DNA of 32,000 nt from Acaryochloris thomasi RCC1774 (lineage in GTDB: Bacteria > Cyanobacteriota > Cyanobacteriia > Thermosynechococcales > Thermosynechococcaceae): the NCBI RefSeq assembly GCF_003231495.1, contig NZ_PQWO01000012.1, positions 150,001-182,000 on the forward strand, in the 5' to 3' direction. How positions within the stretch are numbered: position 1 is the stretch's first letter; every line of letters begins with the position of its first letter. This document shows, in pieces, positions 1 through 31,568 of the stretch. Both the position numbers and the translations under genes were made by a program. The notes beneath the pieces were generated by a model that saw nothing but the letters and a program-made list of their open reading frames with translations, searched no databases and was not told the DNA's origin.

Positions 1-543
1 CGCCACGTGTACTGATAGCGCATGTTTATCCACACCCTGCACAGGATCTTCGACGGTCAACAAACCCCGCCTGATTTTACGGTCAGGATCGGTCAAGAAA
101 TCAGCAAAGCCGACCTGTCCAGCTTTTTCTAGAATTGAGGGCGGTGCCACGCGCTGATTACCAAGAATTGTCTCAACCCCAATTAAGTTTGGCGTTGACC
201 GAAAGACCTCCAGCAGCGCCTGGTGTCCGGTCCCTTCTGGCAAATCTCGATAGAGATCAAGCCCCATCACGCTCGGACCAAGCGCCCGCAGCTGCGTCAG
301 AGCTTTCGCTAAAGTGGCATCAGGAATCGGCCAATCACCAATTGCAGTCAGATCGGCTTCATCAATGGTAACGATCACGATTTCGGCTTCGGTACTCTCT
401 TGAGAGCGCAAACGAAAGAACAGATCGTGGGAGGCCCACTCTAGGAGCCGAAAAATGCCTAGGGCATCACTACCCAGAACCAAAACGGTAACAATAGGGG
501 CAATGAAAAGTGCACCTCGCCATCGCCAAGACTTGAGGTCCAC
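1..543 (-). CDS. CHASE2 domain sensor protein, N-terminal part only (3' end lies beyond the window start)
   Basis: Not in the ORF track because it runs off the window. My minus-strand translation from GTG at 543 reads MDLKSWRWRGALFIAPIVTVLVLGSDALGIFRLLEWASHDLFFRLRSQESTEAEIVIVTIDEADLTAIGDWPIPDATLAKALTQLRALGPSVMGLDLYRDLPEG...FADFLTDPDRKIRRGLL. It shows a TM helix, then the I-x-IDE..L...G.WPW/I..R...A.L...L and GxD-hyd-x-F/Y pattern typical of CHASE2. The frame stays open to position 1. The start lies 8 nt after the DUF928 stop. Confidence 0.75.
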   Translation of the reverse strand, partial: MDLKSWRWRGALFIAPIVTVLVLGSDALGIFRLLEWASHDLFFRLRSQESTEAEIVIVTIDEADLTAIGDWPIPDATLAKALTQLRALGPSVMGLDLYRDLPEGTGHQALLEVFRSTPNLIGVETILGNQRVAPPSILEKAGQVGFADFLTDPDRKIRRGLLTVEDPVQGVDKHALSVHVA

Positions 544-550
544 TACCGAC

Positions 551-1288
551 CTACTGCAGAACGTTTGACGTCGTCAAGGTGTCAAGTTCCTGGGGATTTA
601 GGGCTGTCCATCCCAAAAAGTTACGCCAGGATTGAGCAATCTCAGAATTCTGAGGCTGCTGCCGTTTGAGCTGCGTCAGAGTTGCGATGGTGTCGTACCA
701 AAAGCCAGCTTCTCCTAAGGAAATCGCCTGAGCGATGGAGGGAGCCTGAGCCACAATCGTTGCAACAGATGCATTTGGTATTACTCTTTGAACCCAACCA
801 TCAATAAAGGGGCTGCTGGGCCGCAGTTCTCCATTACACTTCACGGCTAAAAACCATTGATAATGCTTGCTTGGTTCAAGGGCTGGGGCTTGCGCAGGAA
901 GCTGGAAACTGAAGAGACCCGCTTTCCCTGAGATCGGTAAGCTCGTTTCAAAATGAAGCTGCTTTGCTTCATCTTTGAGGCTGAAAAAAACTTCTGTAGC
1001 CGAGGTTTCTGGCAGGTAGGCCACAATTGTGGGGCGCTCTACAGCAGTTAGACCATAATGACTTTCCGGCAGGAGCGCTTTAACCGAAGCCGATTCCGCA
1101 GTGGCAGCCGAGTCACACAACCCACCTCGCGACGCACCTTGAGAAGTTGAAGCACGACGAGGGGCAGGTTTATCAGAAGGCGATTTAAAGGGAATATTGA
1201 CGCTGGCGGCTGCCATCGGAGCCATTGCCCAACTGCCCATGGTCAAAACCATGCTCCCTAGGGCTAGTACTGGAGTCGTACGATACAT
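551..1288 (-). CDS. DUF928 family secreted protein
   Basis: ORF 551..1318. I prefer the internal ATG at 1288, which has an AAGGGGA Shine-Dalgarno about 7 nt upstream and is followed by a signal peptide (MYRTTPVLALGSMVLTMGSWAMAPMAAA). The SRGG-C motif, then GLTAVERPTIVAYLP...FSLKDE...SLPISGKAGLFSFQLP...LEPSKHYQWFLAVKC, matches my memory of the mostly cyanobacterial DUF928 family. Confidence 0.75.
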   Translation of the reverse strand: MYRTTPVLALGSMVLTMGSWAMAPMAAASVNIPFKSPSDKPAPRRASTSQGASRGGLCDSAATAESASVKALLPESHYGLTAVERPTIVAYLPETSATEVFFSLKDEAKQLHFETSLPISGKAGLFSFQLPAQAPALEPSKHYQWFLAVKCNGELRPSSPFIDGWVQRVIPNASVATIVAQAPSIAQAISLGEAGFWYDTIATLTQLKRQQPQNSEIAQSWRNFLGWTALNPQELDTLTTSNVLQ

Positions 1289-1531
1289 ATAGGTCCCCTT
1301 CGTCAATCTGTTCACCATGCCTAAAAATAATTTAAAGTCAATAATTAAAGGCTCTGTCTAGTAGTGAAGCCAACAGCTCATGGATTTAGGCGACTCAAAA
1401 GCCAGATGACAACTGCTAATATATTGCTTGTCAATTAATCAATACTGCAATCTACAGTACTATTCTATTCCTAGTGTGCACTCTAATCTTTTAAATCGCC
1501 AGCTTATGGGTGTGGAAAACACTCTTTTTAC

Positions 1532-4138
1532 CTATAGCCAATTACCTACCAATATAAAGGGTGCCCAGAAAAAAGGAGCGTCATAATCACTCTCTGACAA
1601 TAACGATAGCTGAGCTTGTCTGAGGGCTTCAGCTTTAGTGATTCCTGGGATCTTCAGGGACTGATAAAACTGGCGCATGAAGGTTGCTGTTGATTGATCT
1701 CGAACGGACCAAAGCGTTGCCAGTGTGGCACGGGCACCTGAGCGAACGGCCAATCCGGCCAATCCCAGTACCGCTTTGTCGTCTCCCGCTGCTGTTTGAC
1801 AGGCACTGAGAACTAATAGCTCAATTGCTTGAGAATTTTGTGTTCCCTGTCTAGAAAGCAGTGCACTCAAATCTTGAATATTAAGTCGTCCTTCCCAGGT
1901 CAAAAGGAAGGTCTCAGATGCGTTAGAACTAAACTGCCCGTGGGTTGCCAAATGGACAATGCTAGCGGGTTCTTCGGTAACGCGTTCGGCTAATTTCGGT
2001 CGCGTAAAGTCTTGATTGAGGAGAGTGGTGCTCGGCAAGTTTTGGGAGAGTTGTTTTAGTTCGGAGGTGACAGCGGGGAGTGCACTAAACCCCTGGTGGG
2101 CAAGACTGACGCCGCCTGTAATTGCGCTGAGTTTAGTATCAGCCAATGGGCGAGGCGCTAACAACTGCAGGCCAGGGGAAAGCGCAAGGCGATACTTTTC
2201 AATCAGGTATTGAGTACCGTCGTGGAGAGCCGCCATCGGAATATTGCGCAGTTCACCGTCGAGAACAAACACTAAGGTTTCAACACCTGCAAAGGCCTGA
2301 TCGGCTTCAGCAGAGCGAATCAGTAGATCATACATTTTCTGTGACCGCTGCAGCTGTGCCTCGCTATCATAGGCCAGACTTAAGGATTCTAGGAATGCAT
2401 CAATTTGTGTTTCAACGTCAGCTTCAGCGTTGGGGATGCTGTAGTATCGCGGCGGTTGCTGAGGACGAGAGACAATAATAGCCGTCTGTTCAGGCAGGAT
2501 AATTGAGTAAACAACGGCTGCGGTCGGATCGATTTGGTCAATTTGTACAGGCTGCAGATCGGCACAGGCTTCCCGGAAGAAGTTATCGAGTTCAGCAAGC
2601 TGTAGGGCTTCAATCAAGGCGCGCGCTTCGATTAAGTTGGCTCGACTGGGCTGTTCTTCTTCTAACAGTAGGGCTACAAGCTCTCGATAGGTAGGTTCAA
2701 CACTCTCTCGAAAGGAGAACTGCACCTCTGAACGAATGGTGGCTAAATCGCTACGAAGCTGCTGCAGAGCCTGAGCCGCCTGACGATAGGATGCGATCGC
2801 AAGTCCACTATTCCCCTGCTGCACCTGGAGTCGCCCCAACTGTGTAGCAGCCTGAGCGGTGATGTCAGTCGCTCTCATGCCTTGGGCACGTGCCAAGCCT
2901 TTTTCTGTAACACCAATGGCCTGCTGCAATTGCCCCCGATGTCGGTAGAGTTTTCCCTGCTGAACTAAGGTGTGGGCGGCGGCTTGTCCATCCTGTAGTT
3001 GATTTGCATTAGCAGCGGCCTGCTCTAGCAGTTGCAGGAGAGCATCACTTGATATCGGTGACGGACCGACCTCCCAGGCAAGCGTGGCATTTGCAAAGTT
3101 CACTGCACTGTACACAGCATGACGGCTAGGGGGAAGCCGGGAAATCTGGCGATACAGTTCGGGGACAAGCTGCATCGCTTGCTGCTGTTTTCCAAGTTCA
3201 AGATAGAGACTCAGCTCATTTAACTGGGCGTCAATCTTCTCCCTCGGCTGAGTCGCTGCCTGAGCAGCCTGCTGGAAGAACTTCAGGGCCGCCTGGGTTT
3301 GCTCTAAACCATGCATCGTGCTGCCTAGACTCAAGAGAATAGGGCTACTGGAAATTTTTTCTGCCTGTGCAATCGCAAGACTCTGTTCTAGGGCTTGGCG
3401 ACTTGCTTCAAAGTCTCCGAGCTTTTGGTAGGCGATTCCTAAACTATGCAGTCCTCGCAGCTTCAATATCGAGTTGGGGGTGCTGTTGATCTGCTGGGTC
3501 AAGCCCGTTAAAAGCGTACGGGTCCGGCGATAAAAACCGAGCTGCTGCCAGGCTTGAGCCTGATTGATCTGAGTCCCTAAAGCACCTTGCGCATCGTTGG
3601 CACGCTCATAATACTGATGGGCATTGTTCCAGGTTGCGATCGCATCTTCGGCTTTACCTGTAGAAAACTGCAGACTGGCTTTGGTGTTGAGCGTATGGGC
3701 CCACAGGATCGGCTCTGCAACAGCATTTGATTCTAAGAGGCGTAGACTAGTTGCGATCTCATTTTCAGCAGCTTGCCACTGGGACAATTCTTGATAAGCC
3801 AATGACCCATAACTCAGACTCAAAGCCTGATTGGCAAAATCTCCCTGGCTAGCATAGGTTTCTGCTGCGGCCTGAAAAGAAGTAGCAGCCTCTGCAAACA
3901 ACCCGGCGGAGTAAAGACGCCTTCCCTCTTTTAAAAACTCTTCTTCAGACCGCTCAGTTTCTTTAGTCTGCTGCGCGAGAACAATGAAAGGTTCGGTACC
4001 GACAGAAGCTACCACAGGCTTTGAGGCTACCAGTCCCCCTATCCCCATCCAAATAAACAGCCAGAACAGAAGCGGCTGAGCGACCCTACGCTTAGAGGAA
4101 TGGCAAACCCTATCTTTTTGGCTTGTAGAAGCTAACAT
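1532..4138 (-). CDS. TPR-repeat CHAT domain protein (caspase-like peptidase) with N-terminal hydrophobic anchor or signal
   Basis: 868-aa ORF. A hydrophobic segment LLFWLFIWMGIGGLVA lies near the N-terminus. About 400 aa of TPR-like repeats follow (recurring A..Y/W..A...G pattern). The C-terminal CHAT domain has the His motif VHLATHGQF (His codon 1940-1942) and the Cys motif LVLSACQTA (Cys codon 1799-1801). Confidence 0.9.
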   Translation of the reverse strand: MLASTSQKDRVCHSSKRRVAQPLLFWLFIWMGIGGLVASKPVVASVGTEPFIVLAQQTKETERSEEEFLKEGRRLYSAGLFAEAATSFQAAAETYASQGDFANQALSLSYGSLAYQELSQWQAAENEIATSLRLLESNAVAEPILWAHTLNTKASLQFSTGKAEDAIATWNNAHQYYERANDAQGALGTQINQAQAWQQLGFYRRTRTLLTGLTQQINSTPNSILKLRGLHSLGIAYQKLGDFEASRQALEQSLAIAQAEKISSSPILLSLGSTMHGLEQTQAALKFFQQAAQAATQPREKIDAQLNELSLYLELGKQQQAMQLVPELYRQISRLPPSRHAVYSAVNFANATLAWEVGPSPISSDALLQLLEQAAANANQLQDGQAAAHTLVQQGKLYRHRGQLQQAIGVTEKGLARAQGMRATDITAQAATQLGRLQVQQGNSGLAIASYRQAAQALQQLRSDLATIRSEVQFSFRESVEPTYRELVALLLEEEQPSRANLIEARALIEALQLAELDNFFREACADLQPVQIDQIDPTAAVVYSIILPEQTAIIVSRPQQPPRYYSIPNAEADVETQIDAFLESLSLAYDSEAQLQRSQKMYDLLIRSAEADQAFAGVETLVFVLDGELRNIPMAALHDGTQYLIEKYRLALSPGLQLLAPRPLADTKLSAITGGVSLAHQGFSALPAVTSELKQLSQNLPSTTLLNQDFTRPKLAERVTEEPASIVHLATHGQFSSNASETFLLTWEGRLNIQDLSALLSRQGTQNSQAIELLVLSACQTAAGDDKAVLGLAGLAVRSGARATLATLWSVRDQSTATFMRQFYQSLKIPGITKAEALRQAQLSLLSESDYDAPFFWAPFILVGNWL

Positions 4139-6264
4139 GTTTGTGCTGCGTCTCCAAGGTCTGCTGAAACTAAGTTCGGTTGATGATTTACAAGCCTCAT
4201 ACGTCCTTGAGCATCACGGTGCCAGCCTGTTGCTTCTAGTAACGGGGCTGGTGTCACTGGCCTAGTAGCATATTCCTGTGAAGGATACCCTCGCTGCTGC
4301 GTCGTGCGAAAAGCCGAAAGGTCACGCACATCATTCCATAGCTGTGGATTACTCACTAAATCCTGAGGGCTGGAGGGGACACCTCCCCGACCTGCTAATA
4401 CAAAGCTATTGCCTTGCTTGGCTGCACAACCGATAGCAATCTTCTGACTTGGGTCGCTGACGCCTTCAGGCAAGTTGACAAGAGCTGAGTCTGGGTCAGA
4501 GACAAGTGTGTCGATTTCAATGCCTCCAGCAAGTCCAAATTCAGAGCTAGCATCAATATCATTGGTTCCATTACCTGCAATCGCCTGCCGTTCTGCGAAG
4601 CCAAACAAACCTTGGGTATTAATAGTAATATTGCCCCCCATCCCCTCAAAAGCATTGGCAACGATATTGCTATCTTGACTCGGACTTGCAAAAACAAGAC
4701 CTGCATCTATTGCGATATTGCCGCCATCACCAGTCCCCCCAGCTTCTGCTGTAATCTGACTGTTGTTACTCAGCAGCAGCAGCCCTGAGACTTGCAGATT
4801 GATATTGCCGCCTCTACCAACTTCTGTCTGTGCATTAAGAAGGCCTTGATCAAGAGTTAAGGTATCCGATGTGATGTTGAGAGTGCCTGCGGCTCCAGAT
4901 CCTGAACTCGTAACGACAACTTGCGCACCATCTCTGATCGTTAATTGCGGAGTATTGATACTTAAGACTCCACCAGCACCGGAGCCATCAGTTGCAGCGG
5001 ATAAGTTACTTGGTATTGGAACTGGTGAGCCAATACCAGAAATTTCTATCAGCTCAGAGGCGTTAATGACTATATCGCCTGCCTTTCCCTGGCTAAGAGT
5101 GCCAGAAGAGATAAAACCTCCGTTGCGGATGAACAGCTTCTGAGTATCAATCAGGATATCTCCTCCGTTACCAGTTACTGGTGCATTTATTACCTCCTGT
5201 TCATCGATACCGACTTGCGAGAACAAAGAACTCGGCACACCATCAATTTCAACTGAGTCAGTTGCGAGAACTTCTATATTGCCGCCATTACCAAAATCGG
5301 TAGTAGCATTGGAGATCTGTGTATTACTTAGGACAATGTGCCGACCTCTGAGTCGAATCGTCCCACCAGCGCCACTAGCATCGATGGAGGCCAGATCGCC
5401 AAACAAAGCTGGAACCACAGAGGGATCGAGAGGACCCAAACGAATATCTTGAAAGCTTTCAACCAAGCTGTAGTCAAGTGCCCACCCTTGATTGACCTCA
5501 GTCAAGCCAACAAAGCTATTTCTATCAACACTACCAAGCTCAACCCGTCCTCCTAAAGCAGTAAGATGTCCACCTTCAAACATCACCTCCCTCCCGACAA
5601 GAACCAACGCATTACCTGGCCGTACCTGCAAGCCAACTGGATCCCCAGATGGAGCCAAGCCCAGGGGAGATATGTTAGTAATGGGCATTGCATTAGATTG
5701 ATTGGTGATACCTCCCGGAGCTTCCCCAAACTGCAAGCCAATGGGAGAATTAACTGTCAATAGCGGAGTTGCTTGCGAGGATGCGGCACTAAACACCGTG
5801 CCGTCTGCAAAGGTTAAATCACTAGCAGTAGTTCCAAGGAACGAACCACCAATATCAAGAATTGCATTTGGGCCAAAAATGATACCGTTTGGATTGATCA
5901 AAAAAAGATTAGTGGCTCCCCCAACCTGCAAAGTGCCATCGATATTGGAAATAGAGCTACCTGTCACCCGGCTGATTATATTTTCGACAGATGTATTGCC
6001 AGGCAGACGAAAATTTGCAACCTCACCCGTACGAATAGAAAATGCCTCAAAACTATGAAATAGATTGCTGCCGCGCTGAATACCACCCGTAATCTCTACC
6101 GACGACCCAGCGGTGCTGACTCGCGTTGACAGTGTACCGTCTGGCGCAGCTTGCGCAGTTGACGGGCAAGCGCCCAGTAAGAGGTTTCCTCCAATACATA
6201 TCCCGCAACACAGCCAAGAGTGAATCCACTTATTGGCAACACGAACATTACTTAATAGATACAC
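4132..6264 (-). CDS. Filamentous-hemagglutinin-N-terminal (TPS) domain beta-helix exoprotein, TpsA-like
   Basis: The longest ORF is 4132..6372 with a TTG start. I prefer GTG at 6264, which gives the signal peptide MYLLSNVRVANKWIHSWLCCGICIGGNLLLGACPSTAQA. TPS-domain motifs are NLFHSFEAFSI and LFLINPNGIIFG (first Asn of NPNGI, N160, at 5893-5895). About 9 GGNI-type beta-helix rungs follow (GNGGNIEV, GNGGDILIDT, GRGGNINLQV, GDGGNIAIDA, GMGGNITINT). The start codon is uncertain. Confidence 0.85.
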   Translation of the reverse strand: MYLLSNVRVANKWIHSWLCCGICIGGNLLLGACPSTAQAAPDGTLSTRVSTAGSSVEITGGIQRGSNLFHSFEAFSIRTGEVANFRLPGNTSVENIISRVTGSSISNIDGTLQVGGATNLFLINPNGIIFGPNAILDIGGSFLGTTASDLTFADGTVFSAASSQATPLLTVNSPIGLQFGEAPGGITNQSNAMPITNISPLGLAPSGDPVGLQVRPGNALVLVGREVMFEGGHLTALGGRVELGSVDRNSFVGLTEVNQGWALDYSLVESFQDIRLGPLDPSVVPALFGDLASIDASGAGGTIRLRGRHIVLSNTQISNATTDFGNGGNIEVLATDSVEIDGVPSSLFSQVGIDEQEVINAPVTGNGGDILIDTQKLFIRNGGFISSGTLSQGKAGDIVINASELIEISGIGSPVPIPSNLSAATDGSGAGGVLSINTPQLTIRDGAQVVVTSSGSGAAGTLNITSDTLTLDQGLLNAQTEVGRGGNINLQVSGLLLLSNNSQITAEAGGTGDGGNIAIDAGLVFASPSQDSNIVANAFEGMGGNITINTQGLFGFAERQAIAGNGTNDIDASSEFGLAGGIEIDTLVSDPDSALVNLPEGVSDPSQKIAIGCAAKQGNSFVLAGRGGVPSSPQDLVSNPQLWNDVRDLSAFRTTQQRGYPSQEYATRPVTPAPLLEATGWHRDAQGRMRLVNHQPNLVSADLGDAAQTC

Positions 6265-6415
6265 CTTAGTTTCTGTGAGATATTTCTGACAGCTTCCTGG
6301 AAGTATACCCACATTTGTATTTTTGCCAACATTGAGAACAAGGCAGAATCGCAAAACATTGCAAACTTGCAACGCACAAATACTATTTATCCGCTAGCGC
6401 CTTGATTCTCTACCC

Positions 6416-6513: not shown

Positions 6514-6723
6514 CTACCAACAAAATCTTCCAATGCCTGCAATTGTAATACAGCGTTGAGGCTCAACAACTCGCTTGATAACATCTTGGCTTTCACTCGA
6601 ACTCTGCTCAGCCTGATCAAGCTGAGGCTGAGCTTGAACTTTCTCTGCCATCAGAATTGGGCCAGAAGCAGCAGAGAAGGTCATGGCACTGATCGCTAGG
6701 GCCAAGGAGAATTTAGTTTTCAT
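6514..6723 (-). CDS. Small secreted protein (69 aa), unknown function
   Basis: N-terminal signal peptide MKTKFSLALAISAMTFSAASGPILMA, an acidic Gln/Ser-rich middle and the C-terminus RCITIAGIGRFCW (Cys-x10-Cys-Trp). It has its own downstream hairpin terminator. Confidence 0.5.
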   Translation of the reverse strand: MKTKFSLALAISAMTFSAASGPILMAEKVQAQPQLDQAEQSSSESQDVIKRVVEPQRCITIAGIGRFCW

Positions 6724-8481: not shown

Positions 8482-10218
8482 TTGCAACGCTTGCAGCAGC
8501 CTAATCGATACCATCTATTACTTCTCTTGGCATCGATTGTGTTAGGGCTGGGGCTGCGGCTGATAAACCTAACCGATAAATGCCTCTGGACTGATGAGCT
8601 GGCAACCTTAGTTTTCAGCCTCGGGCACAGCTTTTTAAGTATTCCTCTCGATCAGATCATCACATCTGAGACCCTTCTGCAGCCGTTGGTCCCAGATCCT
8701 CAGCTCAACCTCGGAGGCGTCGTTGAGCATTTACTAGGGGAAAGCAACCATCCGCCCCTCTATTTTTGGCTCACGCATCTGTGGCTGCAGATGTTCCCGA
8801 CCCCAGACGGCCTCGTTTCTTTGTGGGGAGCGCGATCTCTCTCGGCCCTATTCGGCACTGCGGCGATTCCGGCCATCTTTTGCCTAGGCTATCTTGCCTT
8901 CCGCTCGCTCTGGATTGCCCAGTTAGCAGCGCTATTAATGGCGACCTCTCCCCTCGCCATTTATCTGGCTCAAGAAGCGCGTCATTACACGCTCCCGATT
9001 TTGTGGGTGATCGCTTCCCTCGCCTGTTTGATAATCGCCACCCGTGCCCTAGCCGAACGCCGTCCCTTACCCTTGTGGGTGATGCTGGTCTGGATTGTAG
9101 TCAATGGATTGGGAACAGCATCACACTATTTCTTTAGCCTGACCCTCTGCGCTGAGGGGATTGTTTTGCTCGGTTTAGCAGGTCGACAGATCCAGCAGCA
9201 GGCCCTCTCTACAGACAAAACTCTCAAAGCAAACCGTTCTTTCTGGCAAAAGCATCCACTTCGATCAACGTGGCTGCGAATTGGAGTAGTGGGCGCAGGG
9301 ACGTTGGCAAGCTTGGTGGTCTGGCTTCCTTTTCTGCAGGGCGTTCAGGATAGCGAGATCACGCAGTGGATCCATCGGGGCAATCGCGTCGGACTAGAAT
9401 GGCTCGATCCGGTTTTGCAAATCCTGGCGGGGGCGAGCACGATGCTCTACATGCTGCCCATCCAGGCGAGCAATGCGCCCCTCAGCGTGGTGTCGTTTGT
9501 GGCGCTGGTGTTGCTAGCGATTTGGACGGGCTTCAAAATTAATCAGGGACTGCGGATTTCTAGCGCCAATGGCTATGCGGTCTGGATTCTAGGTGGGTTT
9601 GTTGTCGGTGCGATCGCAACTTTTTTAATCATCACCTATGGCTTCGAGCGGGAGGTGACCAGTGCCCCGCGCTATCATTTCGTCTTCTTCCCTGCGGTCA
9701 TACTGCTGATTGCCGCTGCATTGGTCCAGCAGTGGTCGCCTTCTCGAGCTGTTTTGAAACAGACGGCCATTATTATTGTCAGCCTCAGTCTACTGGGCGC
9801 AATCACCGTCGTCAGCAACCTCGGCTATCAAAAAACCCATCGTCCCGACATCGTCGCTCAAGCCATTCGAGAAGGCCCCTCCCAACAAAGCCTGATTGTC
9901 ATCGCCCATTCAACCCACGGCCAAACAGGACGAATGATGGCCCTTGCCTGGGACTTTAAACACCGTCCCCTCCAGCCTGCGCCACTTTTTTTAATGGCCC
10001 ACATCATCGACAAGCCAGAATCAGTCCTCATTCCCCTTCAGCATTCGCTGGAACAGATATCAACCCCCATCACACTTTGGCTGCTTGAGTTCAAGGGAGT
10101 TCCCGAAGACGCACTGCAGGCAACGCTCGCTGCCCATCACTGCCAGCCTCAGCCTCAAGTCAAATCAGCCACAGACGGCTATCGATATCGCATGCATAGA
10201 TGTAGAGGTGATCAGTGA
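8482..10218 (+). CDS. Polytopic membrane glycosyltransferase, GT-C fold (GT39/ArnT-like)
   Basis: 578 aa with about 10 or more hydrophobic helices. A DE motif lies in the first loop (CLWTDELATLVF), followed by HPPLYFWLTHLW, as in the PMT_2/ArnT-like family. TTG start. Confidence 0.7.
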   Translation: MQRLQQPNRYHLLLLLASIVLGLGLRLINLTDKCLWTDELATLVFSLGHSFLSIPLDQIITSETLLQPLVPDPQLNLGGVVEHLLGESNHPPLYFWLTHLWLQMFPTPDGLVSLWGARSLSALFGTAAIPAIFCLGYLAFRSLWIAQLAALLMATSPLAIYLAQEARHYTLPILWVIASLACLIIATRALAERRPLPLWVMLVWIVVNGLGTASHYFFSLTLCAEGIVLLGLAGRQIQQQALSTDKTLKANRSFWQKHPLRSTWLRIGVVGAGTLASLVVWLPFLQGVQDSEITQWIHRGNRVGLEWLDPVLQILAGASTMLYMLPIQASNAPLSVVSFVALVLLAIWTGFKINQGLRISSANGYAVWILGGFVVGAIATFLIITYGFEREVTSAPRYHFVFFPAVILLIAAALVQQWSPSRAVLKQTAIIIVSLSLLGAITVVSNLGYQKTHRPDIVAQAIREGPSQQSLIVIAHSTHGQTGRMMALAWDFKHRPLQPAPLFLMAHIIDKPESVLIPLQHSLEQISTPITLWLLEFKGVPEDALQATLAAHHCQPQPQVKSATDGYRYRMHRCRGDQ

Positions 10219-27112: not shown

Positions 27113-28579
27113 ATGAACAAAAGAATTTACTATACAGCTCTCACACTTGCGATCACGGGAATCTGTACAGCTGCAACAGCTGTCGCCGCCGCAGACGAAA
27201 GTATTACCACGACTTCTCCATCTCCTATAGATTCTTACGCCGATCAGAATCTTCAGGGAGAGATACTTGTAGCCTCTGCTCCTCTATCAGATGCTGAGAC
27301 AACAGTTACAAGCTACTCTAAGCAGCCTAAGCATTTAGAGGGACCTAATATTCCTCCCCGAGTCTTAGCTTCTCCTGATCTCCAACCTCTCGCAAGACTA
27401 GATATTGAAAAGACGCCTATTACAAATGGAGTAGTAGAAGTTTCTACGTCAAACATTGACTTCTCAGCAACGCTAACCTTCAAACCCTCTGCACAGACAA
27501 TCGCTGAGATCCAGGCACTAGAATCAAAGACATCTCACAGCTTTGACAATAGTGCATCTTTACTGGCTCTGGCTTCAGAAACTGTTGAACCAGCCAACGC
27601 AGGCATTAGGTCACAGGTAGTTGAAACACCAGAGCCTGTTGTACAGAACATCAACTTCCCAACAGCTCCAACATTCACTCCTTCCGCACAGACAATCGCT
27701 GAAATTCAAGCTCCAGAGTTAAAGACATCTCACAGCTTTGATAGCAGTGCATCTTTACTGGCTTTGGCCTCAGAAATCGTTGAAGAAACTAATACTGAGT
27801 CCGAGGTGCTGAAAGATGAAAAAACGGAAGCTGTTGTCTCAGACATTAACTTACCAATAGTTCCAACTTCCTCCGCCATGGCACAAGCCATTCCTGAATT
27901 TCAAGCACCCGCAGTTGAAGCTGACCAATCTGTTGAACATGGTGCTGCATTACTGAGACCTTTAGCACCAGGCCTTACCGCAGAACCTAAACTAGAAAAT
28001 TCAGCCACCATTCAAAGGAATAGTGTTGCAGATGCAGTAGTAGCGCCAGCGCCAAAACAAACACCTACGCTACAAAGCAATCTTGATAGGGCCCCCATAA
28101 CTCCAAAGTCATCAGAAATTTTGGATAACTATGGATTAGTCAACTCTATCAAAGGCAATAAAGTCTCGGTTCGTCTCTTAAACGGAAAGAATAAAACCTA
28201 CTTGCTAGCTTCTAATTCCGCAGGGAGTCAAATCAGGCGTGGCGGCTTAATGGGTTTTAACACGGATCGCCGAGGTAGAATTACGCGTCTCGCGCCTCCT
28301 AAGATCAAAAAGATTTACCAAGGCACTCTAGTTATCGTGGAAGGGACAAAAATTGGCATGGTGACACCTGAAGGAGAACGTTTTATCACAACGCTTTCGA
28401 AGAGAAAGATTGCTCACATGGGCCTAGCGCCTGGACAGCCGATCAAGATCACTCAATACAGTGGAACTTGGGCCACAAAAGTTTGCCGTCCGGGAGTATT
28501 AAGCGATCGCCAGATTTCATCTGATGCGATGCAGAGGCAAAGAAATTTCTTGAGGGGTGAAACCTCACCAAAATCTTAA
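27113..28579 (+). CDS. Secreted protein, long paralog: repeat-containing N-region plus the shared C-terminal domain
   Basis: 488 aa with signal peptide MNKRIYYTALTLAITGICTAATAVAAA. The Ser/Thr/Ala/Glu/Pro-rich region contains 65-aa repeats. The C-terminal domain (28118-~28510) is ILDNYGLVNSIKGNKVSVRLLNGKNKTYLLASN...GQPIKITQYSGTWATKVCRPG. Confidence 0.8.
   Translation: MNKRIYYTALTLAITGICTAATAVAAADESITTTSPSPIDSYADQNLQGEILVASAPLSDAETTVTSYSKQPKHLEGPNIPPRVLASPDLQPLARLDIEKTPITNGVVEVSTSNIDFSATLTFKPSAQTIAEIQALESKTSHSFDNSASLLALASETVEPANAGIRSQVVETPEPVVQNINFPTAPTFTPSAQTIAEIQAPELKTSHSFDSSASLLALASEIVEETNTESEVLKDEKTEAVVSDINLPIVPTSSAMAQAIPEFQAPAVEADQSVEHGAALLRPLAPGLTAEPKLENSATIQRNSVADAVVAPAPKQTPTLQSNLDRAPITPKSSEILDNYGLVNSIKGNKVSVRLLNGKNKTYLLASNSAGSQIRRGGLMGFNTDRRGRITRLAPPKIKKIYQGTLVIVEGTKIGMVTPEGERFITTLSKRKIAHMGLAPGQPIKITQYSGTWATKVCRPGVLSDRQISSDAMQRQRNFLRGETSPKS
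27461..27850 (+). repeat. Two good copies plus one degenerate copy of an in-frame 195-nt (65-aa) repeat
   Basis: Copy 1 is NIDFSATLTFKPSAQTIAEIQALESKTSHSFDNSASLLALASETVE. Copy 2 is NINFPTAPTFTPSAQTIAEIQAPELKTSHSFDSSASLLALASEIVE. The core gcacagacaatcgctga occurs at 27491 and 27686. A degenerate third unit (DINLPIVPTSSAMAQAIPEFQAP...) begins near 27842 and extends beyond the stated end. The boundaries are approximate. Confidence 0.7.
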
Positions 28580-29048: not shown

Positions 29049-29450
29049 TTACTTCCCCTCGTATTCAAAGGATTTAATAACGGTAAAATCGTAGGTTACT
29101 TTTCCCTTTGGCAAATCATACTGAAAATCTGAATAGATTTCATTGTAAGCCGCAGCGTACTGTGGCAAAAACAAGTAGTGATAGAATCCTTGGGGAGGGA
29201 AGAAACTAGAGCCAAATCCATTGAGGCCAAACCCAAACCCTCCGGCAGCAAATACATTTCCGGAAAATCCACCCGCTGTAAATGCATTACCGGAAAATCC
29301 ACCTACAGAATTTGCAGGTAGGAAAAATGCCTCGGCAGGCGTTGCCTGAGGAGAAGTAGACTGACCAAAGATAATTTGCGCGTTGGCCCCATTTGTAAAC
29401 GATGCCAAGGCCACCGATAGAGTTGTTAACGCAAGTACAGGAACTTTCAT
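29049..29450 (-). CDS. Secreted Gly/Phe-repeat protein, unknown function
   Basis: Signal peptide MKVPVLALTTLSVALASFTNGANA. Three 10-aa units (GGFSGNAFTA, GGFSGNVFAA, GGFGFGLNGF) are encoded by 30-nt tandem repeats; the minus-strand core appears on the plus strand as ccggaaaatccacc at 29260 and 29290. The C-terminal part is rich in aromatic residues. Confidence 0.65.
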   Translation of the reverse strand: MKVPVLALTTLSVALASFTNGANAQIIFGQSTSPQATPAEAFFLPANSVGGFSGNAFTAGGFSGNVFAAGGFGFGLNGFGSSFFPPQGFYHYLFLPQYAAAYNEIYSDFQYDLPKGKVTYDFTVIKSFEYEGK

Positions 29451-29694
29451 GGGACAAGCCTCACAGCAGAACAGATAGAATAAAGGGCAGAATTATCTTT
29501 TCGTTTAGTAGCTTAATTTATGTAAAAAAGATATAAAGAACATGAAATAATGCCTTTGAGAAGCTGCATCCCTCCCACAAGATATAGCTCCTTTAAAGAT
29601 ATTTGGGCCATCTGTGCTTTTCGTCTACTACAACCACGACTGGCACATTGATCAATGTATTCCCAAAGAAAACTACTCAGCGATTGAGCCGAGC

Positions 29695-30141
29695 CTATCT
29701 GCCTCGCGGTCCTACCTGTGGCTCTGGACTACTCCGTCGAGGTCCGCGATCTCCACTGGCACCCGTTGTGACATTGGTTGTATGCACAAAATCAGCATAA
29801 TCAAAAGATTCACTGAATTCGTAGACGGTGGTTGTTAGCCTTTCTCCACGCTCTCTCGTTATAGAGGTATTTATAGTGCCGTTATCAGAAACGGTTGTAG
29901 TTGTGGCACCATTGGCCCGATTAGAGGTATGACTGGAGTCACGTTGAGAATCAGTGGTGATAGAGAAGCCATTTTCACTCGTTTGTTCCCTTGTCACAAC
30001 ACGGTTGTTACGCTCTGCATGCCCCTGTGGGCTGACAACGAAGTTCATCACAGTTGTGCCAGAAGCATTCTGTGCCAGGCTTGGCAATACAAATGTCAAG
30101 AGCCAAAAAGGTGAAAGCACAAGAACATATTTGGGTTTCAT
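29695..30141 (-). CDS. Small secreted beta-rich protein, divergent member of the local three-gene family
   Basis: The tracked ORF starts at 30195. ATG at 30141 gives signal peptide MKPKYVLVLSPFWLLTFVLPSLAQ. The segment TTTVYEFSESFDYADFVHTTNVTTG aligns with ESYEFTGFQESHRVTAG of the 31161 gene. This protein continues ASGDRGPRRSSPEPQVGPRGR rather than ending FDF. Confidence 0.55.
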   Translation of the reverse strand: MKPKYVLVLSPFWLLTFVLPSLAQNASGTTVMNFVVSPQGHAERNNRVVTREQTSENGFSITTDSQRDSSHTSNRANGATTTTVSDNGTINTSITRERGERLTTTVYEFSESFDYADFVHTTNVTTGASGDRGPRRSSPEPQVGPRGR

Positions 30142-30258
30142 ACTAACAATTCTCGCTTTTCGACAGGGTAGGCAGCTACCATTTATAACCATCATCTCTA
30201 TTCAAGAGTAAAGAAACATCCCTAACGACAGCTCAACTTAAGCCAAGGATGATTCAGA

Positions 30259-31092
30259 CTACTGCCGTGCTTGAACACTTGATTCCTGAGTGCTAGCCGT
30301 TGCGGGTCGCTGCAGCTGTGCCGGCTGAACTGGTCGCTGCGGCTGAGGTACGGCCTGCTGTTGAACAGGTTGAATGGGCTGGCCTGACTGCTGCTGTACA
30401 AAATTTTGATTCGTAGCAGACGGCTCATTGATAAGCTGCTCAGCTTGCTGTCGGGAGACGGGCTGGACTTGTTGCTGGCCCGCTTGCTGCTGTCGAGAAA
30501 CAGGTTGCGCTTGCTGTTGACCCAGTTGTGGCTGACGGCCTCGGGCATTACGATTATTCTGCTGTGGCGCAGCACCAAATGGGCTGGCACCAGGCTGCGG
30601 AACGGTGACAGTTGGGCACTCAAGGCCAGCAAGCTGATTAAGATCTTCGTAGCTAATCTTGATTCCAGATTTAATCATTTTGGAATAGTTACTAATGACT
30701 AGCAAACAAGTTTCCAAAGACGCTCTGGCTAATTGTGTCTTTGCATATGCTCGGCAGGTATCTACACCAAATGACTTGGTATAGGTAAATGAGCCACCAA
30801 TAGAACCTGTATCGAAGGGACCGATTCCATTACCAAAAGCAGATAGCGCAATACCAGAGCTGGAGCAGTCAGCGATACCATTACCAACAACACTTCTGCC
30901 TAGAGGGAATGAATTCACTTGTGTATTAACAAGCGATCCCTGCTGGTTTAGATCAACGACAGGATTCGCCGTTGAGTTTGCATTGTTGGGAGCATCAATA
31001 TTGTTTGTGGTAGCCTGTGCAGACACTTTCCCTGCAGTACACAATAGCAAGCCAACAACTGAAGCACCCGCCATTAAATGACGATAATTCAT
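30259..31092 (-). CDS. Secreted protein: Cys-containing N-domain plus Gln/Pro-rich C-terminal tail
   Basis: AGGAG SD and signal peptide MNYRHLMAGASVVGLLLCTAGKVSAQA. The ~135-aa domain has 4 Cys. The ~110-aa Q/P-rich tail contains two 14-aa repeats, GQQQAQPVSRQQQA and GQQQVQPVSRQQAE (30439-30522). Confidence 0.7.
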   Translation of the reverse strand: MNYRHLMAGASVVGLLLCTAGKVSAQATTNNIDAPNNANSTANPVVDLNQQGSLVNTQVNSFPLGRSVVGNGIADCSSSGIALSAFGNGIGPFDTGSIGGSFTYTKSFGVDTCRAYAKTQLARASLETCLLVISNYSKMIKSGIKISYEDLNQLAGLECPTVTVPQPGASPFGAAPQQNNRNARGRQPQLGQQQAQPVSRQQQAGQQQVQPVSRQQAEQLINEPSATNQNFVQQQSGQPIQPVQQQAVPQPQRPVQPAQLQRPATASTQESSVQARQ

Positions 31093-31160
31093 TTCATGTT
31101 CTCCTAGGCCAACGATAGGGGCATTAATAAATTTTTGCCCCCCAAATTTCTAAGTGCGGA

Positions 31161-31568
31161 TTAAAAGTCAAACCCGGCTGTAACTCTGTGACTTTCCTGG
31201 AAACCAGTAAACTCATAAGACTCCTGTACACGAACCGTTGTGTTCTTAAGTACAGTGCCTTGCTCCCTGGAATAACTTCTGGATGTAACGTCAAAGTAGG
31301 TGTCTTCTTGGACGTTGCGGCCATCTTCGACGTAGGTAATTGAAGTTTTACCTCGCTCACGCTTTACCGCAAAGGCATCAGCTTCGCGCTCGCCATTATA
31401 AACTTCTCTAACATTGAGCCTAGTTTCTGCCTTGCCATTTGTGATGACCCGCCGACTTTGGCTATTCCCAACATAAGCACTGCCTGCTATTGCTGGCAGT
31501 GAAGCTACAAGCCAAGAGAAACAGATAAGAGGGAGGAATCTACGGCATTTCATTTTAAACACCATCAA
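31161..31568 (-). CDS. Small secreted beta-rich protein ending ...HRVTAGFDF
   Basis: Signal-like N-terminus (M)KCRRFLPLICFSWLVASLPAIAGSA. The start could be 31568 or 31553. The ~105-aa mature part has alternating polar/hydrophobic strand-like segments and a C-terminal Phe. It is a paralog of the 31699 gene. Confidence 0.65.
   Translation of the reverse strand: MMVFKMKCRRFLPLICFSWLVASLPAIAGSAYVGNSQSRRVITNGKAETRLNVREVYNGEREADAFAVKRERGKTSITYVEDGRNVQEDTYFDVTSRSYSREQGTVLKNTTVRVQESYEFTGFQESHRVTAGFDF

Follow-up and report, generated by a model that had tools for sequence, protein, structure and literature searches.

The 32,000-nt stretch of DNA analysed here (the window; positions 150,001 to 182,000 of contig NZ_PQWO01000012.1) comes from the unicellular cyanobacterium Acaryochloris thomasi RCC1774. 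At one end, between positions 1 and 6372 of the minus strand, it carries four consecutive open reading frames (ORFs), encoding a two-partner-secretion (TPS) exoprotein of the TpsA type, a TPR-CHAT protease, a DUF928 protein and the N-terminus of a CHASE2 sensor. An earlier note, made from the letters of this DNA, had proposed these four domain identities, and Pfam searches bore them out (Table 1). The DUF928 protein is C1752_04081 of A. thomasi RCC1774 (100% identity, 245 aa), whereas the CHASE2 match covers only model positions 3-133 of 257 because the gene continues past the left edge of the window. Export or insertion into the membrane is predicted for all four products, as had been supposed, with signal peptides on TpsA, DUF928 and CHAT and a transmembrane (TM) helix preceding CHASE2. 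Public annotation of the cluster proteins indeed consists of domain names only.

The cluster is built of two tightly coupled pairs, TpsA with CHAT and DUF928 with CHASE2, each of which also occurs alone. The ATG of the CHAT gene (4138) overlaps the TpsA stop codon (4132-4134) by 7 nt, the overlap that had been claimed, and the DUF928 stop codon (551-553) lies 7 nt from the GTG of the CHASE2 gene (543), not 8 nt as first reported. The AT-rich gap of 243 bp that had been described between the CHAT stop and the DUF928 start was found again; it is likely the boundary between two transcription or translation units. No consensus promoter was hit in this spacer by a scan that did no better than shuffled sequence, and Rfam and tRNA scans found no RNA element or tRNA in the spacer or elsewhere in the window. 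Distances between called genes in relatives follow the same pattern: the DUF928-CHASE2 gap is the shortest (3-109 nt), the TpsA-CHAT junction is short or overlapping (-16 to 130 nt), and the CHAT-DUF928 gap is always the longest (214-690 nt); a separate measurement in relatives gave a median of about 443 nt for it.

Table 1. Features of the cluster and its upstream neighbour (positions in the window)
Feature	Position	Strand	Evidence
CHASE2 membrane sensor, N-terminal 181 aa, continuing past the left window edge	1..543	(-)	Pfam CHASE2 (PF05226) E 6e-32, frame 1-543; no stop in 1-543
DUF928 protein, 245 aa	551..1288	(-)	Pfam DUF928 (PF06051) E 5e-50, 170 bits vs gathering cut-off 26, in ORF 551-1318; start ATG 1288
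Conserved linear motif of DUF928, F34 to G55, F-K-S-P…A-P-R-R…Q-G-A-S-R-G	1124..1189	(-)	alignments of DUF928 relatives
AT-rich 243-nt spacer, CHAT stop 1532 to DUF928 ATG 1288	1289..1531	(-)	GC 0.37 vs 0.50 for the cluster
Exported (predicted) TPR-CHAT protease, 868 aa	1532..4138	(-)	Pfam CHAT (PF12770) E 1.2e-55; TPR_12 E 2e-13 and several other TPR families
CHAT domain, residues 599-866	1541-2344	(-)	Pfam; TPR array also in protein
Catalytic His733	within 1937-1954	(-)	ortholog alignment
Catalytic Cys780	within 1790-1810	(-)	ortholog alignment
CHAT signal peptide (predicted), about residues 1-44, VVA↓S	3998-4015	(-)	alignment of orthologues
Short TpsA-type beta-helical exoprotein, ~710 aa	4132..6264	(-)	Pfam TPS (PF05860) E 2e-57, residues 73-312 of ORF 4132-6372; TIGR01901 E 2e-23, same ORF
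TPS domain of TpsA	5437-6156	(-)	Pfam; beta-helix repeats also in protein
Conserved TpsA C-terminal tail, LVNLPEG…C(649)…F-V-L-A-G-R-G-G-V-P…EATGW…C(746)	4135..4482	(-)	alignment, ~35 homologues
Small secreted pre-pro-peptide (predicted), 69 aa, co-directional and possibly a clade-specific fifth gene	6514..6723	(-)	homologues upstream of TPS gene
Terminator-like hairpin after the small peptide gene	6521-6505	(-)	terminator scan

The gene combination was followed in two sets of loci (individual loci are given L numbers below). The DUF928-centred set came from a profile scan over one genome per GTDB species, which yielded 79 loci, each taken with flanks of up to 10 kb on both sides; the retrieval profile was made from a subset of DUF928 sequences, the first alignment being too divergent, and the six-frame ORFs of these loci were labelled by similarity to the window proteins. 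The CHAT-centred set comprised 80 metagenome loci around TPR-CHAT orthologues, of more than 583. All DUF928 loci were cyanobacterial but one, a probably mis-binned metagenome-assembled genome. Of the 79, 62 contained CHASE2, 44 TPR-CHAT and about 31 a TPS gene. In 76 loci the flank on one side of the DUF928 gene(s) reached 2.5 kb or more; 58 of these had CHASE2 within 450 bp of DUF928. Where at least 7 kb was available on both sides (40 loci), CHASE2 was found in 33, TPR-CHAT in 26, TPS in 19 and all three in 13. The co-directional order TpsA>CHAT>DUF928>CHASE2 was seen in at least 16 of the 79 loci, versions with a duplicated TpsA included.

The reciprocal set gave TPS upstream of TPR-CHAT in 38/53 loci, DUF928 downstream in 33/60 and CHASE2 downstream in 25/46, with the full four-gene order in about 11 of the 80. 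The ordered loci of both sets span several cyanobacterial orders, and independent gene calls with precomputed Pfam labels returned TPS>TPR-CHAT>DUF928>CHASE2 in L160, L161, L162, L163 and L164. The density of CHASE2 was 7.5 per 100 kb up to 7 kb from DUF928, with none farther away; the same control was uninformative for TPS at this cut-off because the TpsA genes of the cluster sit 5-8 kb from DUF928. The linkage of the four families is thus far above chance and the gene order is kept, as the earlier note had anticipated. Its statement that the combination recurs in filamentous cyanobacteria was right as to the recurrence but too narrow as to the hosts, since unicellular or colonial cyanobacteria, namely A. 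thomasi, Hydrococcus, Gomphosphaeria and Chroococcidiopsis, have it too. Two culture-collection strains among the loci, Calothrix PCC 7103 and Dulcicalothrix PCC 7102, possess DUF928, CHASE2 and TPR-CHAT, and no TPS gene was seen in them within 10 kb.

Defined in 2003, the CHASE2 domain is widespread among bacterial cyclases, kinases and enzymes of cyclic di-GMP (c-di-GMP), and papers of 2016 (PMC5192318) and 2023 (PMC10581220) still describe its ligands as unknown. Of the domain, the window fragment has the first half, preceded by the GTG start and the TM helix; the fragment is 83% identical to the N-terminus of the L001 protein, a 950-aa CHASE2-HisKA-HATPase-REC with the full domain and C-terminal hydrophobic segments. 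Since the CHASE2 partners in L160, L163 and L164 share this architecture (CHASE2-HisKA-HATPase_c-REC), a hybrid kinase output is likely here too, and the relatives point to a hybrid histidine kinase of about 920-960 aa as the probable full-length product. A homologue search with the fragment returned short partial proteins only. Among the 62 DUF928-linked CHASE2 proteins, the cytoplasmic domains include cyclase (16), HisKA/HATPase (14, 12 of them with REC), GGDEF (6), Pkinase (4), CHAT (4) and SpoIIE (3). CHASE2 and DUF928 stay paired while the outputs are exchanged, which assigns DUF928 to the input side. Of the envelope module with a CHASE2-linked output envisaged before, the input function therefore fits, whereas the single unit gives way to two separable pairs. 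DUF928, almost always beside CHASE2 in cyanobacteria, is a concrete candidate for a CHASE2 binding partner.

The Pkinase and CHAT domains that are fused to CHASE2 stand at the N-terminus and are hence cytoplasmic. CHAT-CHASE2 proteins occur in L063, L065, L070 and L072 and Pkinase-CHASE2 proteins in L066 and L068, with DUF928 as the next gene in all six. The fused CHAT is of a divergent type that was missed by a hidden Markov model made from the CHAT domains of the cluster. Long CHASE2 proteins that were also considered as CHAT fusions proved to be histidine kinase-REC-cyclase hybrids.

The DUF928 gene starts at ATG 1288, ahead of which lies a Shine-Dalgarno-like AAGGGG, and the resulting 245 aa agree with the public annotation. 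Its signal peptide ends at about MAAA↓S, and two nearly invariant cysteines, C58 and C151, fit an oxidising compartment. An AlphaFold2 model with a mean predicted local distance difference test (pLDDT) score of 81 consists of a disordered tail (1-68), an Ig-like beta-sandwich (78-168) and a C-terminal helical bundle (173-240); no sequence relatives of the protein were found in the PDB. The disordered tail holds a conserved linear motif, itself with pLDDT <60, in which F34, P43, G51, A52, R54 and other residues are invariant in DUF928 alignments. Its consensus is F-x-P-P-x3-4-A-P-x4-G-G-A-S-R-G with an invariant Arg, and among DUF928 relatives it is present in 1-8 tandem copies with a period of 21-23 aa. 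The family comprises 6664 representatives at E<=1e-3, at least 5,000 at 50% identity clustering; of the 146 best representatives, 28 have at least two copies of the motif, and a Gly follows the motif Arg in 58% of the copies. The tail motif is a candidate protease or recognition site. Two representatives of the family, P0102 and P0103, contain two complete DUF928 units in tandem, each with its own Arg-motif tail.

For the TPR-CHAT protein, the hydrophobic N-terminus had been taken as a membrane anchor. The export stands, but alignment of 42 orthologues shows Sec-type signal peptides (basic n-region, hydrophobic core, AxA-type site), so that a cleaved signal peptide is more likely than an anchor and the whole protease is predicted to be periplasmic. 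Both residues of the catalytic dyad, His733 (HLATHGQFSS) and Cys780 (LSAC[QE]TAxGD), are invariant in 43/43 sequences, and the enzyme is therefore probably active. A profile search against the PDB matched the TPR part only and gave no sequence match to solved CHAT structures.

The TpsA gene had been given a start at TTG 6372, but GTG 6264 (710 aa) is probably the true start, because the orthologues have 706 aa and a promoter-like site, TTGGCA-16-TATACT at 6329-6302, lies within the TTG extension. Ahead of the TPS domain, a signal peptide ending AQA↓A (…KWIHSWLCCGICIGGNLLLGACPSTAQA↓APDG) was read from the translation, and the NPNGI motif of the TPS domain is found at 5881-5895. The C-terminus is formed by a tail of its own, to which no Pfam family was matched. 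About 35 TpsA homologues share its consensus …LP…D.S..I…C…F.VTGRGGLP..P…W.D.R.LS…EA.GW…G.V.LVA…C, in which two conserved Cys flank an invariant GRGG motif; the corresponding F-V-L-A-G-R-G-G-V-P stretch of the window protein is at 4375-4395. The tail is predicted to be flexible, and the confidence of its model was too low for use as the query of a structure search. Homology between the GRGG motif of TpsA and the GASRG motif of DUF928 was considered and dropped, the two being too short, and they are kept solely as a shared candidate site with Arg at P1.

The sequences of TpsA and CHAT also bear on whether the cluster is a conflict system, either one delivering a TpsA toxin in the manner of contact-dependent inhibition (CDI) or a caspase-like suicide or defence module triggered by the CHASE2 sensor. 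CdiA toxins do belong to the TpsA proteins, CHAT and caspase-fold proteases serve as effectors in Craspase and other defence systems, and CHAT-CHASE2 fusions with a cytoplasmic CHAT exist. However, the TpsA C-terminus is conserved across orders rather than polymorphic, the overlapping CHAT gene instead of an immunity-like gene comes next, and no CdiB is encoded in the window, all of which separates the cluster from CdiA/CdiB/CdiI. Moreover, the signal peptide present in all CHAT orthologues puts cytoplasmic targets out of reach, and housekeeping genes flank the cluster. Protein-family and Rfam scans of the 32-kb window detected no cas gene or repeat array, nor was any CRISPR or nucleotide-signalling context found in it. 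With Csx29, the TPR-CHAT protein of Craspase (type III-E CRISPR), the window protease shares the layout of TPR and CHAT, and Craspase also cuts one partner to pass a signal; yet Craspase is cytoplasmic, gRAMP-bound and RNA-activated, whereas the window protease is predicted to be exported, and its gene neighbours are TPS, DUF928 and CHASE2. A conflict role thus appears highly improbable.

Tentatively, and with somewhat less than even confidence, we propose that the cluster encodes a trans-envelope signalling system of two translationally coupled pairs, in which cleavage by CHAT switches the CHASE2 output via DUF928. TpsA would be exposed at the cell surface while its C-terminal tail, bracketed by Cys, still reached the periplasm; DUF928, as a co-sensor or ligand, would be the partner of CHASE2 on the periplasmic side. 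The periplasmic TPR-CHAT protein could bind short flexible motifs through its TPR array and cut after the invariant Arg of the TpsA tail (…G-R↓G-G…), of the DUF928 tail (…G-A-S-R↓G…) or of both. Such a cleavage would alter the presentation of DUF928 to CHASE2 and thereby switch the kinase, cyclase or GGDEF output; we thus infer that the protease feeds into the CHASE2 sensor, and that surface events (contact, or secretion or release of the exoprotein) might in this way be reported to the cytoplasm.

Described systems offer precedents for this proposal. HetF, a cyanobacterial CHAT protease and the only one found with a mapped cleavage site, cuts PatU3 after Arg (R117↓S; PMC9457339), a precedent that would by analogy support Arg as P1 in the GRGG and GASRG motifs. 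In Burkholderia, the gene for a secreted LysM-FecR partner is found 10 bp upstream of CHASE2 kinase genes (PMC5192318). In Sinorhizobium meliloti, the outer-membrane protein NsrA relays a proteinaceous signal to the CHASE2 cyclases CyaD1, CyaD2 and CyaK (PMC13001267, PMC7529298). In Pseudomonas aeruginosa, the TPS adhesin CdrA is severed from the surface of the cell by LapG, a periplasmic Cys protease under the control of LapD, a protein of the inner membrane (PMC4694147). If the model is true, mat- and aggregate-forming cyanobacteria would report surface or contact events to cyclic AMP, c-di-GMP and phosphorelay pathways, and functions would be gained for four widespread families now known by domain name only.

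Several observations weigh against this proposal. Craspase cleaves after Leu or Met, so the specificities of CHAT proteases differ. The TpsA tail could not be modelled, with a pLDDT of ~50 vs ~78 in the preceding beta-helix coils (AlphaFold2), and Foldseek returned generic Ig/FN3/CBM folds for DUF928 without a functional clue. No TpsB (POTRA_2/ShlB) is encoded in the 32-kb window, and TpsB is linked in 6/79 DUF928-centred and ~10/80 CHAT-centred loci; it may be encoded elsewhere in the A. thomasi genome, but since it is so seldom linked, surface display of TpsA is an assumption. The canonical GGASR form of the DUF928 motif accompanies a CHAT gene in the same locus (21/27 vs 6/28), which speaks for the proposal, but this association is confounded by phylogeny. 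The pairs are separable, no DUF928 lying downstream in 27 of the 60 TPR-CHAT loci with enough flank, and Microcoleus-type loci combine CHASE2 with 2-5 DUF928 paralogues that carry the Arg motif GGTHRG, with no CHAT or TPS gene within 10 kb. Finally, the signal could run in the opposite direction, as in the Lap system.

The separability of the pairs would be expected if TpsA with TPR-CHAT as its maturation protease, and the CHASE2 sensor with DUF928 as its periplasmic accessory, were two independent neighbouring modules between which no information flows. Each pair is frequent alone: the 27 loci just mentioned are CHAT-only or TPS-CHAT loci, many metagenome loci show TpsA-CHAT only, and DUF928 (single or tandem) stands with CHASE2, in either order, in loci devoid of CHAT or TPS. 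The junction between the pairs is also always the longest gap, and is AT-rich here. Nevertheless, the pairs stay adjacent, co-directional and in the same order in loci of several orders in both sets (at least 16/79 and about 11/80); the rearranged Calothrix version, DUF928>CHASE2>REC-HK>TPR-CHAT, retains CHAT within 1.5 kb, and CHASE2 is also found fused to a CHAT domain. We consider independence of the two modules rather unlikely.

Two kinds of variant locus deserve description in their own right. L045-L060, L064 and L067 (Microcoleus and relatives) have 2-5 tandem DUF928 genes ~140 nt apart and divergent from the CHASE2 gene; the CHASE2 protein is of about 605 aa with no recognised output domain, and the DUF928 motif reads GGTHRG, not GGASRG. 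In L062, L069, L076, L077 and L078 (Stenomitos, Leptolyngbya, Leptothermofonsia), DUF928 and a gene for a TpsB (POTRA_2/ShlB) are divergently oriented, and in four of the five a conserved membrane protein of ~550 aa without Pfam match comes after DUF928. No CHASE2 or CHAT was detected in these five loci.

A different flow of information would follow if the cluster resembled the Lap/CdrA system of Pseudomonas aeruginosa (PMC4694147) and controlled its adhesin from the inside out. CHAT would then free a TpsA held by its Cys tail, cutting at GRGG, while the CHASE2 protein, with DUF928 as its adaptor, would withhold the protease or set it free depending on the state of the cytoplasm; the cluster would serve to control attachment, aggregation or biofilm formation, not to sense the outside. 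The same type of triad is present in both: a TPS surface protein (CdrA, secreted with CdrB), a periplasmic Cys protease (LapG) acting on its periplasm-reaching part, and an inner-membrane signalling protein with a periplasmic domain (LapD). The TpsA tail, like the part of CdrA that is cut, has a candidate cleavage motif near the C-terminus, here a conserved small-residue motif between two conserved Cys; TpsA and CHAT are translationally coupled, TPS being the commonest neighbour of CHAT (38/53); and the CHASE2-GGDEF protein Dgc2 governs motility and biofilm in Leptolyngbya (PMC10581220).

The differences are substantial, however. TPR-CHAT has a caspase fold (clan CD, caspase-hemoglobinase) whereas LapG is transglutaminase-like (DUF920), the two folds being unrelated. 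LapD is a degenerate GGDEF-EAL receptor of c-di-GMP, while the CHASE2 proteins carry catalytic outputs that vary between lineages (HisKA/HATPase/REC, cyclase, GGDEF, Pkinase, SpoIIE), and the literature treats CHASE2 as a domain for sensory input. The cluster differs further in its additional DUF928 protein, in its clustered genes, in the lack of an adjacent TpsB and in that cleavage is here only a candidate event; in addition, DUF928 with CHASE2 is found in loci that lack TpsA or CHAT. The cluster is therefore not a member of the Lap family, although it may work like the Lap system; control of this inside-out kind seems doubtful to us.

In a further alternative, DUF928 would be a precursor or a multivalent presenter of a periplasmic peptide signal: CHAT, gated by TpsA, would cut at the G-G-A-S-R↓G that ends each of the 1-8 tandem units, about 22 residues long, of its tail, and the peptides or the unmasked body would serve as the CHASE2 ligand. 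We regard this as distinctly unlikely. If true, it would amount to an extracytoplasmic proteolytic ligand-generating cascade with a logic like that of Spätzle/Toll, for which the Cys-loop peptide of the Acaryochloris clade (6514-6723) could be the external trigger.

This peptide is encoded by a co-directional fifth gene that the count of four genes in the earlier note had overlooked. The 69-aa product begins with a signal peptide, continues with an acidic linker and ends in a C-terminal Cys-loop, …EPQR-C-ITIAGIGRF-C-W (C-x9-C). Homologues with the signal peptide preserved, and with PQ[GR]-C-x9-C as their motif, are encoded immediately upstream of TPS in L163 (729-920), L160/L161 and L092, and the gene was not found in the remaining ~160 loci. 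It may be a fifth member that the cluster has in this clade only, its product perhaps serving as a peptide signal. In other loci, a HEIGH (HExxH) zinc-protease-like protein of 413-556 aa is encoded just upstream of TPS (L162 1911-3581, L035 1723-3324, L036 702-1940). It had no Pfam match in L035 and L162 and weak Reprolysin/M10 matches in L036 only, and is a possible additional protease of the system.

Returning to the proposed trans-envelope system, its parts are known families and its logic resembles known envelope relays, but the gene set appears to be unstudied: no literature was found in full text that links these families (combinations of DUF928, CHASE2, CHAT and TPS/hemagglutinin), and a search for 'DUF928' gave one unrelated survey only. 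Nor did we find a description of what the sequences here suggest, a periplasmic protease of caspase fold that is coupled to an exoprotein of type Vb. A close parallel on the sensor side is the 'BiofilmReg' pairing of LysM-FecR with a CHASE2 kinase in Burkholderia (PMC5192318), in which a periplasmic protein with a signal peptide is likewise encoded immediately upstream, is apparently co-translated, and forms a constant periplasmic pairing with a variable cytoplasmic part. In contrast to it, DUF928 has no detected similarity to LysM or FecR, no FecR appeared among the top 50 Foldseek hits, and the Burkholderia operon contains no protease or TPS gene. The NsrA-CyaD1/CyaD2/CyaK system also relays a proteinaceous extracellular signal from the outer membrane to CHASE2; its receptor, however, is a beta-barrel and not a TpsA, its signal is a host protein, and no protease or DUF928 is known in it.

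HetF of Anabaena PCC 7120 (PMC9457339) is, like the window protease, a cyanobacterial CHAT cysteine protease with TPRs, and its activity, after Arg, is proven. In HetF, however, the CHAT domain is cytoplasmic and the TPRs periplasmic, whereas the whole TPR-CHAT protein here stands behind a signal peptide; substrates and role (cell division, heterocysts) are different as well, and the comparison of sequences extends to the shared Pfam domain. From classical TPS systems (FhaB/FhaC, ShlA/ShlB) the cluster takes the N-terminal TPS domain with NPNGI, the signal peptide and the beta-helical passenger, but its TpsA is very short (~710 aa) and has a Cys-bracketed GRGG tail outside Pfam families, TpsB is usually not adjacent, and the downstream partner is a protease, not a transporter.

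Beyond the cluster, the first gene is divergent (7206, plus strand) and encodes a pyridoxal phosphate-dependent enzyme. Most of what remains of the window is taken up by housekeeping genes (glyQ, an AI-2E transporter, aminotransferases, EPSP synthase, PIN-PhoH, RF3). The ORF at 8482-10218 (+), considered as a TpsB for its size, which is about right, was rejected since it encodes a multi-TM membrane protein; this 578-aa multi-pass protein has no Pfam/NCBIfam match and by eye resembles an ArnT/PMT-type glycosyltransferase. A 488-aa secreted protein with internal repeats of ~70 aa (27113-28579, +) and a run of four or five ORFs (29049-31568, -), all without Pfam/NCBIfam match, are located where the window is richest in AT (GC 0.42-0.45). 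The octamer GCGATCGC, which we take to be the cyanobacterial HIP1 repeat and which fits the assignment to Acaryochloris, occurs 17 times in the whole window vs 0.5 expected.

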